NCBI GenBank assembly: GCA_021323375.2
Contig: JAJPCT020000025.1
Span: 22,583-86,582 of the forward strand
Direction: 5' to 3'
DNA from: Candidatus Wolframiiraptor gerlachensis
Lineage (GTDB): Archaea; Thermoproteota; Nitrososphaeria_A; Caldarchaeales; Wolframiiraptoraceae
DNA: 64,000 nucleotides
Part shown: positions 2,863 to 56,496 of the stretch, piece by piece
Layout: each line of letters opens with the position of its first letter
How positions within the stretch are numbered: position 1 is the first letter of the stretch
Translations under genes and position numbers: made by a program
Notes under the pieces: generated by a model
Told to the model about the DNA's origin: nothing
The model's input: only the letters and a program-made list of their open reading frames with translations
Databases searched by the model: none

Positions 2863-4092
2863 ATGCAGAGATCCAAGATAGTTGTTGAGAGATTGAATAG
2901 GCTGCCGGTGAAGGATCAGTATGTTGAGCTTGTGGAGAGGAAGGGGTTGGGACATCCTGACTATATTATAGATGCGGCTTGCGAATGCGCCAGCGTAGCG
3001 CTCTCACGATATTATCTGGAGAACTTTGGCCAGATCCTTCATCATAACTTGGATAAGGGTCTTCTGGTTGGCGGCCACTCCGAGGTATGGTTTGGTGGAG
3101 GAGTAGTTGAGGAGCCTATTGATATAATCATAGCTGGGAGAGCCACGACCAAGATCTCGACACCATCCGGGTATATCGAGGTTCCCTATAGGGAGCTTGT
3201 GGAGGAGGCGGTTAAACATTTCATCAGGGAGAATTTCAGGTTCTTGGATCCCGAGGAGCATATCAGGATCGATGTTAAGGTGAGGATGGGTAGCGCGGAT
3301 CTAAGGAGGACTGTGGATAGCTCGGATGAGGTTCCAAGGGCTAATGACACGTCCTATGGCGTCGGTTATGCTCCCCTGACGCCGCTTGAAAGACTCGTTT
3401 ACGAGGTTGAGAGGAGGATAAACTCGCGGGGATTTAAGGGCAGAGTTCCGGAGAGCGGTGAGGATTGCAAGGTTATGGGGCTGAGAGTCGGTAAGAGGTA
3501 TTTGATCACTGTTGCCGATAGCATTCTAGCGCCCCTCACGCCGGATCCGGGGCACTATGAGGCTGTGAAGGAGGAGATACGTGAGGAGGTTCTAAGGATA
3601 GCTGACGAGATTTTGAGGGAGGAGAGGCATGAGGGCGTGGAGGTTTACGTGAACGCTGCTGACAGGCCGGATGAGGGGATATTCTATCTCACGGTTACCG
3701 GGACATCGGCTGAGAGTGGCGATGACGGGAATACGGGAAGAGGTAATAGGGCGAATGGCCTCATAACGCCCAATAGGCAGATGTCTCTCGAGGCGACAGC
3801 CGGCAAGAATGTTAGATCCCATGTTGGGAAGCTCTATAACCTGGTCGCGAGGAGGATTGCCGAGAGGATATACGAGGAGACGGGCAAGGTTGATGAAGTC
3901 TATGTTAGGATACTCAGCCAGATAGGCAGGCCCATAAACAGGCCGCTCGTGATCTCGATACAATACACATCGCTCGAGAACATAGATGAAAGGTCATTCG
4001 CCTATGAGGCTGCTGAGATAGCCAAGGAGCAGATGAAGGAGATCAGGGAGATGGAGAAGCTCGTATTAGAGCAGAAGGTGATGTTATTTTGA
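2863..4092 (+). CDS. mat: Archaeal S-adenosylmethionine synthetase
   Basis: 'ERKGLGHPD', 'HHNLDK', 'ANDTS', '[11 protein letters not shown]', 'AGKN..HVGKLYN'. Confidence 0.95.
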
Positions 4093-4269
4093 GATTAGCA
4101 TCCACACTCGCCATGAGGAATGAGGATCACATACATGGGCCTAAACCCCTCAGATGACTCATACGCGATATCTGAGAACTTTCCCTGCCCGAATACTGAT
4201 CCTCATTCTCTCCTCATCCTCGATAACCTCCCATCTCCTCCTAGTGTCATTCATAAACAATATCATGTC

Positions 4270-4530
4270 ATGCGATCCTCTCCCGCGTGCCCAAACCTAA
4301 CACACGCCCAAAATCCATCATCCTCCTGAACTCCTCGATGACCCTCTCATCCATCCACTTCCAGAACCGTTTTCTACACTCCTCGCATATCACCTGAATA
4401 ATCCCCCATCTACTATAATCGCATAGCCCTTAGCCCTCTCCTCAAGCTCCTTCTTTGTAAGTGTTATGAGTCCCCTGCATAGGTTGCATACGACCTCATG
4501 CTTCTCGATATGCGGAACCTTCTTGATCCT
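4270..4530 (-). pseudogene. Degraded small zinc-finger ORF
   Basis: Minus strand reads 'EVVCNLCRGLITLT...' and, after a frame change, 'QVICEECRKRFW...'. Confidence 0.35.
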
Positions 4531-4631
4531 ATCTTACTTATCAGTTAGGTGGGCTTAAAATTCCTCAGGGGTGAGCCTCCATTTTCGGGATGGCCCTCAA
4601 TGAATAAAGGAGGGGCGCATGTCAGGGATAT

Positions 4632-4931
4632 GTGGGGATGTGGTTGCCTGGAGTCCAAGGATTGTATGGGGGGTTTGTGGGCTGCTTTAAGGGAGTGGAG
4701 TTGCTGGACGACCTCACCAAGATATTTGATTACACGAATGAGACGTTAATGATTGTAGAGGGTTATGGGGGTGGGCTTCATCCGGTTCTGGTGAGGACAT
4801 TAGTCCTCGAGAGTCTTGAGAGGATAAATGATTTCGCTGGGGCTTATGCCGGGTATATCGGGGAATCCATGATGAGGGTGCTATGTGACGAGCTTAAAGG
4901 CCTGCTGGAGGTGGTTGAGGACTGCGAGTAG
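4632..4931 (+). CDS. Hypothetical small protein overlapping the start of the IS110-like gene
   Basis: 99-aa ORF with the same lower-GC composition as the downstream gene; overlaps its start. Confidence 0.5.
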   Translation: MGMWLPGVQGLYGGFVGCFKGVELLDDLTKIFDYTNETLMIVEGYGGGLHPVLVRTLVLESLERINDFAGAYAGYIGESMMRVLCDELKGLLEVVEDCE

Positions 4932-5807
4932 GGTTGTTTTTGTTGATACTTCTAGGATTGGTAGGGGTGGTAGGAGAAGGGGGAAGCCGCATGTATGCTA
5001 TGATGGTGAGAGGATATTTAAGGTGAGTGGGCTGACAGGGCTCAAGGATTACGACGAGATATTCATCGACACGTTATTCCCGGAGATCTATGATGAGGTT
5101 CTTGAATTGTTGAGGAGGGTGTTAGGGTGTATCTGCTGAAGGACATCACTAAGCTGAAGAAGCTGAGGATAGAAAGTAATTTGAGGAAGAGTGATGAGAA
5201 TGATGCTGGATTGCTTGCATGTATTCCAAGAGAGGCATTTAGGCAGCTGACTGCTGAGGAGCTGGAGATTAAGGCTCGGATAGAACCGTTGATAAGGCAC
5301 TATGAGAAGATTGTAAGGTGGAGAATGACACTAAAGAAGTTGATAAAAGATGGCTTTGACTACAATCTTAAGGAAACAATAAGGTTCATGAAGATAGATG
5401 AAAAAAGAATTTCTGAGGAGATTATTAGACAGGTCGCCAACCTCTTCATATATGGGAAGGTTTACAGAAAAACCTGTGAGATCCTCGGGGTTAAGGGTAG
5501 CACCAGATTGGCAATACTAACACTAGAGCCACCGCTTCACCTACCATTAGTGAGGTTAAAAGGATTACTAGGACTGATTCCGGGCCAAAATGAGGAAAGA
5601 TACTACCATAAACTGAGAAAATCTCTCGCACAGTGTGCAACAAACCTTTACATAAACACTAAGAGAGGTGTGAGTGTTTCGAATGAAGTTGCTGAAGTTG
5701 TTAATCTCTTGCCAGAGAGGCAAGCAATATACAGGTTACAGTTAATTATTCTAAAGGCGCTATGGATAGCATATCTTATGACTGTGAAGCCGCTGGCCGG
5801 CGAGTAG
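4915..5807 (+). pseudogene. IS110-family/TasR-like RuvC (DEDD-type)-coiled-coil-Nop/Tnp protein, ~297 aa, one frameshift near 5118
   Basis: 'VVFVD', 'IFID', 'KSDENDA' RuvC motifs; 'LLGLIP...HKLR' Tnp/Nop-like motif; adding one G in AGGAGGGT restores 'LLRRGVRVYLLKD'. Confidence 0.7.
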
Positions 5808-5932
5808 TAAAAACCATAAAGGCCGGTAAGGTTGTAGCTTGCACCCCACCACGGAGGATTTTTATGATTCCGTGGATGGTTATACTCAGGTCCCCTGCCG
5901 GCTTTTATGGCTACGAGGACTCGCCGGCCAGC
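5792..5932 (+). ncRNA. Long hairpin ncRNA (bridge/seek/tigRNA-like), copy 1
   Basis: GCTGGCCGGCGAGT/ACTCGCCGGCCAGC, CCATAAA/TTTATGG and CCACGGA/TCCGTGG stems; homologous copy at 56174-56306; followed by a T-rich tract. Confidence 0.7.
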
Positions 5933-6112
5933 CCCACCCTAACCCCTTACCTTTTTATTTCAAATTTAGGCCGGGAAAGGGGATAGGAGAATGGATCTAA
6001 GCCTTACTTTATTATTGAGCCCTTATTTGAAGTCCTTAAGATTATTGCTCATGAGATATGGGAATTTTATGTCGCCAGGAGACTGTTTTAGGAGGGATCT
6101 TCTGATGCTCTT

Positions 6113-6853
6113 CTAGCCAAGGAACTCGTCTAAGCCCCTCCCGCGCCTGAGAACCTCATGGCACTTCCTCGGGCTTAGGCACCTGAACTCGACCCCGTGG
6201 GCCGCCAGCATCTTCGACGCCGATCTCTGGACGCCCGGCGCGACGAGGATCATTCTCGGCCTTCTCCCAAGTTCCCTCTCAATCTCCCTGACATAGGAGA
6301 CTAGCTGCTTTACATCTTCTGAGGTCGCATTCCTCCGCTTTATCTCGATCACGACGATGTTTCCCGAGGAATCCACTCCGAAGATATCCACGAAGCCCGC
6401 GCGCCCGACCCTCCTCTCATCCTCAATGGGCTTAAAGCCCTCCTCGATAAGCGATGGCTCTAGAAGTATCGCCCTCTTCATCTCCTCCTCCGTCGCATAC
6501 ATCGCGAACTCTGCCGAGTCCTCAAGCCTGTATGCCTCCAAGCTATACACCCTCTTCACCGTGATCCTGAGAATTTCCTCCGGGCTCAGACGCCTCGCCT
6601 CTATGACCAGCTCATTATCCCTCATGGCCACATCTATCATGGATCCGGGAGGTTGCCAGTTTACGGGCTCATAGCCTGTTGGCCTATGAACTAGAACACT
6701 TCCATCCTGCTTGATTATTAGGAGGCGCTCGCCCTCTCCTAGGCTTGAGGAGGCTCTGCCTTCATAGAAGACCTCCATAAGCCCTACTAAGACCATGAGC
6801 GACCTGCTTCTAATCCCCTCCTTGAGCTTCTCAGCCGCCTCCTCGAGCCTCAA
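6113..6853 (-). CDS. nucS: Endonuclease NucS/EndoMS
   Basis: 'YEGRASS', 'PVNWQP', 'VDIFG', 'IEIKR', 'QL..Y'. Confidence 0.93.
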   Translation of the reverse strand: MRLEEAAEKLKEGIRSRSLMVLVGLMEVFYEGRASSSLGEGERLLIIKQDGSVLVHRPTGYEPVNWQPPGSMIDVAMRDNELVIEARRLSPEEILRITVKRVYSLEAYRLEDSAEFAMYATEEEMKRAILLEPSLIEEGFKPIEDERRVGRAGFVDIFGVDSSGNIVVIEIKRRNATSEDVKQLVSYVREIERELGRRPRMILVAPGVQRSASKMLAAHGVEFRCLSPRKCHEVLRRGRGLDEFLG

Positions 6854-11790: not shown

Positions 11791-11893
11791 TGCCGGGGCC
11801 GGGATTTGAACCCGGGACAACGGGGTTCCATCCTCTGACCAGGCTTTGGGAGGATTATGAGCCCCGCACTCTACCAGGCTGAGTTACCCCGGC
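11791..11893 (-). tRNA. tRNA-Met(CAT), elongator-type, with 29-nt anticodon-loop intron
   Basis: GCCGGGG...CCCCGGC-A; BHB motif TCAT/ATGG with AAT and AAC bulges. Confidence 0.9.
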
Positions 11894-17275: not shown

Positions 17276-17383
17276 GCGGGGGTAGCCAAGCCTGGTCAAC
17301 GGCGGCGGGCTCAAGATCCCCTTGCAAGATGGGTGACCCGCTCCCGCAGGGGTTCGTGGGTTCGAATCCCACCCCCCGCACCA
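17276..17383 (+). tRNA. tRNA-Leu(CAA) with 20-nt intron (17316-17335)
   Basis: GCGGGGG...CCCCCGC-A-CCA; long variable arm; BHB at 37/38. Confidence 0.93.
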
Positions 17384-55996: not shown

Positions 55997-56099
55997 TTCT
56001 CAGCCCCTCTAGAAAACCATCCTAAATCCCAAGTTAAATACATATGTAGGCCTTCCCAGCCGGATGGGAAAGGATTAAAGCTCGCCTAGAAAACTCACT

Positions 56100-56188
56100 C
56101 TAAGCATTATGCGAGTTACAACTAATGACCCTACAAGGCACTACGGATAGCGTATCTCACAATGGTGAAGCCACTGGCCGGCGAGTAG
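56100..56188 (+). pseudogene. 3'-terminal remnant of a paralogue of the 4915-5807 IS110-like gene
   Basis: Aligns to the end of copy 1 (GTTACA...GGATAGC.TATCT...GTGAAGCC.CTGGCCGGCGAGTAG), encoding '...RIAYLTMVKPLAGE*'. Confidence 0.75.
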
Positions 56189-56306
56189 TAAAAGCCACAA
56201 AGGCCGGTAAGGCTCTAGCGGGTGCTCCACCATGGATTTACAAAACCATAGACGGTAATGACCGGCATCCTGCCAGCCTTTGTGGCTATAAGGACTTGTC
56301 GGCCAG
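56174..56306 (+). ncRNA. Long hairpin ncRNA, copy 2
   Basis: Same scaffold as 5792-5932 with compensatory changes and G-U pairs on the + strand. Confidence 0.7.
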
Positions 56307-56370
56307 CCCCACCCCCCATTTTTACTTTTGAGGAAAAAGGATAAAACTCGCTCAGAATCATAGTGAAGCT

Positions 56371-56496
56371 GGGGTTGCCGGTCATAGGGAGGGGGGAAAT
56401 ACCCAGACCCATTCCGAACCTGGAAGTCAAGCCCCCTCCCGCCTGGCGAGTAGTGGGGTGCGGGAGCCCCCGCGAAAGCCGGGTGCTGGCAACCCC
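56371..56496 (+). rRNA. rrf: 5S rRNA (unlinked)
   Basis: GGGGTTGCC...GGCAACCCC helix I; 'CCCATTCCGAAC', 'GAAGTCAAG', 'AGTA', 'GCGAAA' motifs. Confidence 0.95.

Follow-up and report, generated by a model that had tools for sequence, protein, structure and literature searches.

The window analysed here is a stretch of 64,000 nt from the genome of Candidatus Wolframiiraptor gerlachensis (1.28 Mb in 27 contigs, 89% complete), and it carries two copies of a hairpin RNA of about 140 nt, both on the + strand. Copy 1 (about 5794-5940) lies at the end of a protein gene, while copy 2 (56175-56315) has the last codons of a paralogous gene in front of it and the 5S rRNA gene about 60 nt behind it. The question raised by this locus is what an intact structured RNA is doing next to the 5S rRNA gene once the gene that accompanies it elsewhere has been reduced to a remnant. 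The reading preferred here, to which a probability of about 0.7 was assigned, is that copy 2 derives from an RNA-guided mobile element of hot-spring archaea, is truncated at its 5′ side so that it lacks the gene, and sits at its own target. It was taken for a truncated, non-autonomous copy at its own target because the copy is absent from sister genomes and because the two strands of its variable loop read a contiguous site at the 5S start there.

The hairpin RNA and its variable loop

In a first-pass annotation of the window, made from the letters alone, copy 2 had been described as a second intact hairpin with particular stem and loop sequences, and every detail of that description was found in the window. 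The RNA consists of an outer stem, an invariant lower internal loop, a second stem, a large variable internal loop and an apical hairpin. The 5′ strand of the large loop is called T and the 3′ strand of the same loop B in the following; in copy 2 they are located at positions 56213-56226 and 56256-56268, respectively. By eye, the loop strands are flanked by conserved GG..GG and CC..CC. The fold of copy 2 reaches -63 kcal/mol with a z-score of -5.98, and none of 200 shuffled sequences equalled it.

A covariance model of the hairpin was built on ten copies and run on the genome of the window and on its relatives, a search that the first-pass annotation had proposed. Copy 2 was matched with 131.4 bits (E 1e-27). 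The 44 matches in the genome correspond to 28 loci and weaker echoes on the opposite strand; 14 of the loci are close relatives ('A' type) and about 14 are diverged. The RNA units are scattered singly across 15 contigs, two pairs lie 6-8 kb apart on one contig, and none are arranged in tandem. Copies 1 and 2 of the window are connected by the repeat families D2 (81%) and D13 (85%), and copy 2 is not the only one of its kind, as further RNA loci are also without the gene or carry a truncated gene. The distribution is patchy: the model matches two of 13 other genomes of the genus and, among the other genera of its order, none of 27 genomes, and the hairpin matches no Rfam family at the gathering score.

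The covariation and the contrast between loops and stems, both of which had been anticipated from the two copies of the window, were borne out by the larger family. In an RNAalifold analysis of ten copies, compensatory changes were present in 9 of 41 pairs, and with 41 copies from three genomes they were present in 18 of 26 consensus pairs, with frequent G-U pairs that fit the + strand only. The change from CCATAAA/TTTATGG to CCACAAA/TTTGTGG is a real compensatory pair (UA:9, CG:1 in the ten-copy alignment), and the differences in GGCGAGT/ACTTGTC are G-U pairs on the + strand alone. Among the 14 close copies the column entropy was 0.38 bit for paired positions, 1.53 for the T loop, 1.54 for the B loop and 0.32 for the lower internal loop. 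The lower internal loop varies as little as the stems do, and each RNA has a single variable internal loop. The complementarity between the 3′ ends of T and B, also pointed out before, proved to be above chance (a run of at least 3 nt in 15 of 43 RNAs, a number reached in none of 500 shuffled T/B pairings), yet it is confined to part of the copies.

Guide strands, flanks and empty sites at the 5S rRNA gene

A block of about 285 nt containing copy 2 is missing at this site in all 13 other genomes of the genus. In three sister genomes (labelled G002, G008 and G011; L followed by a number denotes an element or RNA locus below) the 5S promoter and gene are uninterrupted, and the distance from the upstream flank to the 5S gene is 15-19 nt, compared with about 285 nt in the window. 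Alignment to these empty sites revealed the following order of features, all on the + strand. A left copy of the 5S promoter box (56066-56086), followed by 16 nt of spacer up to 56102, is G011/G008-like and is now severed from the 5S gene; its role as a promoter is suggested by its position before the 5S gene in the relatives. It is followed by the 3′-end remnant of a RuvC/Nop-like gene (56103-56174), which was recognized by alignment with gene-bearing copies and by repeat family D2. About 27 codons are left (56103-56184), in agreement with the 25-30 estimated earlier, and their stop codon (56185-56187) lies within the outer stem of the RNA. Behind the RNA a T-rich run at 56316-56329, which resembles the T-run after other copies, is likely an archaeal terminator. 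A right, diverged copy of the promoter box and spacer (56330-56375), which is G002-like, now stands directly before the 5S rRNA gene (56374-56494; Rfam RF00001, 94.7 bits).

The T guide of copy 2 agrees in sequence with the DNA immediately before and across the 5S start at 10 of 14 positions in G008 and at 9 of 14 in G011. The reverse complement of the B guide has a 10-nt exact match at 56376-56385, which are the first bases of the 5S gene and the right half of the copy 2 target, and fits the empty sites at 9 of 13 (G008) and 10 of 13 (G011) positions. On the uninterrupted site of the sister genomes T and B together correspond to the end of the spacer and the first 5S bases with an overlap of TGC, so that the TGC/GCA complementarity of copy 2 is the exact overlap of the guide halves. 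The programmable two-part guide postulated in the first-pass annotation was thus confirmed insofar as each loop strand reads a different DNA strand of a single uninterrupted site and the two share a short core. The additional suggestion that copy 2 may act in trans as an orphan guide was not supported in the sense of a free guide aimed elsewhere, since its guides spell the adjacent 5′ end of the 5S gene, the insertion is absent from the sister genomes and a genome-wide composite search returned no further target for copy 2.

For a general comparison of guides and flanks, T and B guides were taken by alignment columns from 45 RNA loci, 27 from this genome and 18 from two sister genomes. Exact matches of at least 10 nt within 1.8 kb were counted, and the expectation was derived from 200 derangements of the guides among the loci. 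Four geometries were enriched: T as reverse complement downstream (7 matches, 0.47 expected), B same-sense upstream (5, 0.34 expected), B as reverse complement downstream (4, 0.32 expected) and T same-sense upstream (3, 0.28 expected), which gives 19 matches together against 1.4 expected, compared with 4 against 1.75 for the four remaining, non-fitting geometries. The four fitting geometries reduce to a single rule and its mirror image: to the left of the element the top strand has the sequence of one guide, to the right of it the top strand is complementary to the second guide, and the element may lie in either orientation. The predicted enrichment of targets therefore holds for the own flanks of the elements (19 matches) but not for the genome as a whole, where composite T+B searches gave 107 matches compared with 84-116 for shuffled pairings and no sign of targets in trans. 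Unlike near their own loci, single guide halves were not enriched genome-wide over reversed controls either, with best-match lengths of 10, 11, 12, 13 and 14 nt occurring 8, 28, 13, 3 and 2 times versus 13, 26, 13, 2 and 0 times in the controls.

Elements that are missing in sister genomes comprise L010 (1173 nt), L004 (1598 nt), copy 1 (about 2.0 kb) and copy 2. At these unoccupied sites the guide halves adjoin and overlap by 1-3 nt; on the G008 sites L004 fits with 9 of 13 and 12 of 13 positions and L010 with 10 of 14 and 12 of 14. In this composite scoring an overlap of the halves of up to 8 nt was allowed, and a limit of 4 nt led to low scores because the outermost loop bases are not part of the guide. 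The own guide pair was the best of 45 pairs in six of eight comparisons, and one comparison was tied by a single foreign pair. For copy 2 the own pair was the best against both G011 and G008 (19 of 27 positions each).

A full element encodes a protein of about 290 amino acids (aa) and the hairpin RNA of about 140 nt, which overlaps the stop codon of the gene. According to the preferred reading, the conserved stems would serve as the handle for the protein and the strands of the large loop (11-15 nt each) as two guides. One guide, being the top-strand sequence left of the insertion point, would pair with the bottom strand, and the second, being complementary to the top strand right of the insertion point, would overlap the first by the 1-3 nt of the core. 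The ribonucleoprotein would open the duplex and act, putatively by cleavage, at the core, and the element would end up between the two half-sites in either orientation. Which strand is paired by each guide in vivo is deduced from these matches. Copy 2, with guides that spell the last spacer bases and the first 5S bases, would have landed at this place, and the second promoter and spacer at its right end would keep the 5S gene served. Most of the gene and the left junction would have been lost afterwards, presumably by a later deletion. Such an insertion would explain the doubled 5S promoter of the window.

Several observations weigh against this reading. A flank match of at least 10 nt was found in only 16 of the 45 loci, and for copy 1 the guides have no match at the site of the element. 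At the copy 2 site of the window the T half is disrupted by an additional T and further changes, and at the left junction no more than the initial 5 nt of the T match are left in front of the gene remnant. The T half also fails on the site of the closest relative G002, and the composite score of copy 2 (0.70) exceeds that of the best foreign pair (0.65) by a modest margin. Alternatively, the promoter copies could represent a long target duplication, in which case the right junction would be placed at about 56330, some 45 nt upstream of the guide match. Among the contigs of four sequencing runs the insertion of copy 2 is present in X6 and X7, and in the contigs of all four neither the joint of an empty site nor a circle was found. 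Finally, the paralogues of the protein show 37-75% identity, a sign of old divergence and unlike recently active insertion sequences (IS).

Two further explanations were considered. Copy 2 could have been domesticated, being transcribed from the stranded left 5S promoter and acting on the 5S locus together with a paralogous protein supplied in trans, for instance in repression or processing. Such a role would be in line with an RNA that is intact and near the consensus despite the lost gene, with the promoter copy upstream, with a B guide complementary to the 5′ end of the 5S gene and with the existence of TIGR-Tas repressors (10.64898/2026.09.09.750476). It is nevertheless improbable: the absence of the insertion from all 13 other genomes of the genus means that the function is not conserved, the proteins of the family retain the DEDD residues, the T half no longer fits the resident site, and many gene-less copies lie at unrelated sites. 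The other explanation, a guide for RNA modification with an H/ACA-like pocket or in the manner of a box C/D-like small RNA (sRNA) for 5S rRNA or tRNAs, would account for a hairpin with a two-stranded variable pocket and for several guides matching tRNA or 5S genes. We consider it highly improbable, as the two strands match opposite DNA strands, so that only one of them could pair with an RNA product, and as relatives have empty sites where these loci are inserted. The patchy distribution and the missing Rfam family argue in the same direction, as does the RuvC site, which is intact, unlike that of Nop5 (Vaysset et al., 10.1101/2024.06.21.599552).

The protein and its relation to IS110 and TIGR-Tas

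By tblastn the gene was detected at about 19 places in the genome, six of them apparently intact and coding for 286-300 aa. At least 157 homologues are present in a large protein collection; all are unnamed or 'hypothetical' and without Pfam domains, and five are labelled 'Thaumarchaeota archaeon'. In Pfam and NCBIfam searches only PF01548 (DEDD_Tnp_IS110) appeared, below the threshold (E 0.022), and sequence and profile searches against PDB chains gave no match. An AlphaFold2 (AF2) model reached a mean confidence score (pLDDT) of 88.9. The protein combines a DEDD nuclease domain of the RuvC type with a coiled coil and an RNA-binding domain of the Nop/Tnp type, and it is a member of the structural superfamily that also contains the IS110 bridge recombinases and TIGR-Tas TasR. 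An alignment of 49 sequences showed that D8, E46, D95 and S194 are invariant and that D50 and D92 are conserved in 48 of them. The DEDD tetrad in the N-terminal RuvC-like domain is intact, as in IS110, and a Nop domain is fused to RuvC, as in TasR. Two mechanisms related to these systems were weighed.

The first is a true IS110-type bridge recombinase, which would exchange strands via a covalent intermediate and whose single loop would read both the target and the junction of the element circle, so that one end of the element mimics the target flank. In IS110/IS1111 elements such as IS621 (Durrant et al. 2024, PMC11208160; Hiraizumi et al. 2024, PMC11208158) a structured RNA is likewise encoded beside the gene, the 5′ strand of the loop represents the left target, the 3′ strand is complementary to the right target with a short common core, and the elements are inserted between half-sites. 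The guide geometry and the core found here are those of the target-binding loop, in keeping with the bridge-RNA likeness seen in the first-pass annotation; the likeness ends at the number of loops, because bridge RNAs have a target loop and a donor loop and the archaeal RNAs have one programmable loop. The location of the RNA 3′ of the gene is shared with IS1111-type elements. Some ends at right junctions resemble the partner guide (10 of 14 positions in L010; a score of 0.57 in copy 2, with one of 42 foreign guides as good), and 4 of 20 right junctions rank second or better among 42. Overall this test for donor mimicry was weak, with a mean of 0.47 versus 0.41. The imperfect agreement between the flank 'duplications' is what pre-existing mimics would show.

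Solo RNA modules are also known in the IS110 family from ISPpu9, which has a downstream small-RNA gene, Ssr9, that occurs in solo copies as well (Pares-Guillen et al. 2025, PMC12288879). According to that report the solo modules derive from defined circles and Ssr9 is dispensable for transposition, in contrast to the archaeal solo copies, which have ragged left ends and loops that match their own sites.

Other features speak against a bridge recombinase. PF02371 (Transposase_20) had no match in the genome up to E 10, and hhalign with a canonical archaeal IS110 protein of the same class aligned the KSDxxD stretch alone at a non-significant E of 0.13. The nucleophile of IS621, Ser241 (Ser241-Gly242), is located between Tnp helices 3 and 4 (PMC11208158). 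The equivalent loop in the archaeal protein, mapped by the order of helices in the AF2 model and not by superposition of residues, spans residues 217-228. No serine is conserved in this loop among the 49 sequences, with N in 23, D in 8, T in 6 and S in 5 at position 222 and Y in 42, F in 4 and H in 3 at position 227, and the invariant S194 lies outside of it. Neither a second variable loop nor conserved left and right ends were found: the sequences just inside 20 right and 10 left junctions share no common motif, the right ends lie 9 to several hundred nt past the RNA, and the left boundaries of gene-less copies vary. Moreover, in IS110 the core alone is repeated, whereas the junction repeats or flank duplications here measure about 5-6 nt in the shortest case, 10 and 13 nt in others and about 40 nt in the longest; blastn-short detected no long direct repeats around any locus beyond these hand-aligned cases. 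Insertion in both orientations relative to the target and guides of 11-15 nt are further differences. A bridge recombinase in the strict sense thus seems possible but rather unlikely.

The second mechanism is homing by a TasR-like RNA-guided nuclease, in which RuvC would cut the uninterrupted site and host repair would copy the element in along with a recoded sequence that replaces the host flank; truncated copies and footprints would be products of this repair. We rate the chances of this mechanism as slightly below even and leave what remains, apart from the share of strand exchange, to other chemistries. In TIGR-Tas (Faure et al. 2025, PMC12045711) a hairpin unit with two short spacers addresses two DNA strands in tandem, and TasR shows the same RuvC and Nop-like architecture of about 290 aa; the single dual-spacer hairpin of the archaeal family equals one stem-loop tigRNA unit. 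The lack of a conserved serine in the loop and of conserved ends speaks for it, as do the flank duplications of variable length, the variable left boundaries of gene-less copies and the synonymously recoded end of the S-adenosylmethionine (SAM) synthetase gene that is duplicated at copy 1. Free-standing homing endonuclease genes and integrative elements that rebuild gene ends are similarly inserted at conserved genes (5S, tRNA, last codons) and carry a duplicated, partly recoded copy of the displaced host sequence; the specificity is borne by the protein there and by the RNA in the archaeal family.

Homing is less compatible with the location of the guide inside the element and, on its own, leaves own-flank matches at 16 different sites unexplained, and 28 dispersed copies in 1.3 Mb are IS-like. 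In addition, the published stem-loop TasR proteins are reported to be catalytically dead repressors with arrays (10.64898/2026.09.09.750476), unlike this family with its intact DEDD residues. Compared with TIGR-Tas as described by Faure et al., the family lacks a tandem array and has a single unit fused to the gene end plus dispersed solo units, its spacers match its own flanks, which marks it as mobile rather than aimed at foreign DNA, it has long extra stems, and box C/D motifs are not evident by eye. A box C/D small ribonucleoprotein, in which the inactive RuvC-like domain of Nop5 recruits fibrillarin and the guides of a kink-turn RNA pair with RNA, differs from the family on these points. 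Retro-copying, with 5′ truncation and an end at the terminator, was retained as no more than a remote option, RVT_1 being absent from the 89%-complete genome.

On these comparisons the family represents a new form that stands between IS110 and TIGR-Tas. In the literature search no single-loop mobile archaeal member was found described, though one might be listed in the supplementary locus tables to the papers by Faure et al. and Vaysset et al., which were outside the search. Faure et al. (PMC12045711) likened the bridge RNA to two fused tigRNAs, and Vaysset et al. (10.1101/2024.06.21.599552) reported that they did not find an archaeal lineage linking IS110 and Nop5. As a tentative proposal, for which the odds are well below even, the family might be a living intermediate between TIGR-Tas and IS110, that is, a self-mobile RuvC/Nop protein with a single dual-spacer hairpin that inserts at an RNA-specified site without the IS110 serine, a donor loop or fixed ends, each element carrying a replacement of the displaced host sequence (promoter or gene end) and new specificities arising by shuffling of guide halves. 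If true, this would amount to a third kind of RNA-guided transposition and would reveal how guide systems with one loop gave rise to array-based nucleases or to two-loop recombinases.

Among programmable DNA tools, bridge recombinases and TIGR-Tas are recent, compact and independent of a protospacer-adjacent motif, and their mutual relation is an open evolutionary question. A thermophilic archaeal one-loop family can serve as a direct test case, with its RuvC site intact and its choice of sites documented in nature by empty sites, by guides that match the flanks and by truncated copies; it also offers a minimal protein of about 290 aa with an RNA of about 140 nt for bench trials. For annotation, it explains some 28 loci of this 1.3-Mb genome that would otherwise count as 'hypothetical' or as unusual hairpins.

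Copy 1 and further members of the family

The full element of copy 1 (4094-6103, + strand, about 2.0 kb) is absent from five sister genomes. It contains a leader open reading frame (ORF; 4632-4931, +), a frameshifted gene (4885-5807, +) composed of an ORF at 4885-5139 and a 226-codon ORF at 5127-5807 in another frame, and the RNA (5794-5940, +), which overlaps the stop codon of the latter ORF; in the paralogues elsewhere in the genome the same gene is in a single frame. The small leader ORF and a conserved motif of about 35 nt (about 4575-4615) precede many gene copies and are missing from others, e.g. on contig C4. Copy 1 is flanked on both sides, at 4078-4092 and 6104-6116, by the codons with which the SAM-synthetase gene ends (V M L F stop). 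The left end closes the gene and is synonymously recoded, and the right end is the version of the relatives. G002 holds both versions about 8 nt apart, which looks like an excision footprint, and G002 sites have the look of footprints left by lost elements. A near-composite match to the copy 1 guides is located at about 42216 of the window (G000:C25:64798), with B same-sense at 10 of 14 positions, T as reverse complement at 11 of 14 and an overlap register of 5; it may be an unoccupied target, and such matches are not enriched genome-wide over shuffled pairings.

Guides of L025 (G000:C7:3332-3468) and of L041 and L044 (both G002) match within adjacent tRNA genes in the D-arm/T-arm regions, and conserved RNA genes are therefore regarded as recurrent targets of the family. 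L021 (G000:C16:117116-117244) and L023 (G000:C23:2360-2488) have an identical T guide and unrelated B guides, a pattern which suggests that guide halves are shuffled between copies. L011 (G000:C16:72539-72692, - strand) and L043 (G005:C1:34459-34601, in a further sister genome) carry near-identical T guides and have the same flank on opposite sides of the RNA in two species, which suggests an inversion or that the elements were inserted independently in either orientation. The 3′ end of the L011 RNA adjoins a gene fragment that lies on the opposite strand.

Apart from the element, Rfam identified tRNAs of 103-105 nt at 11791-11893 (- strand) and 17276-17380 (+ strand) of the window, which were not listed by ARAGORN and are probably intron-containing genes.
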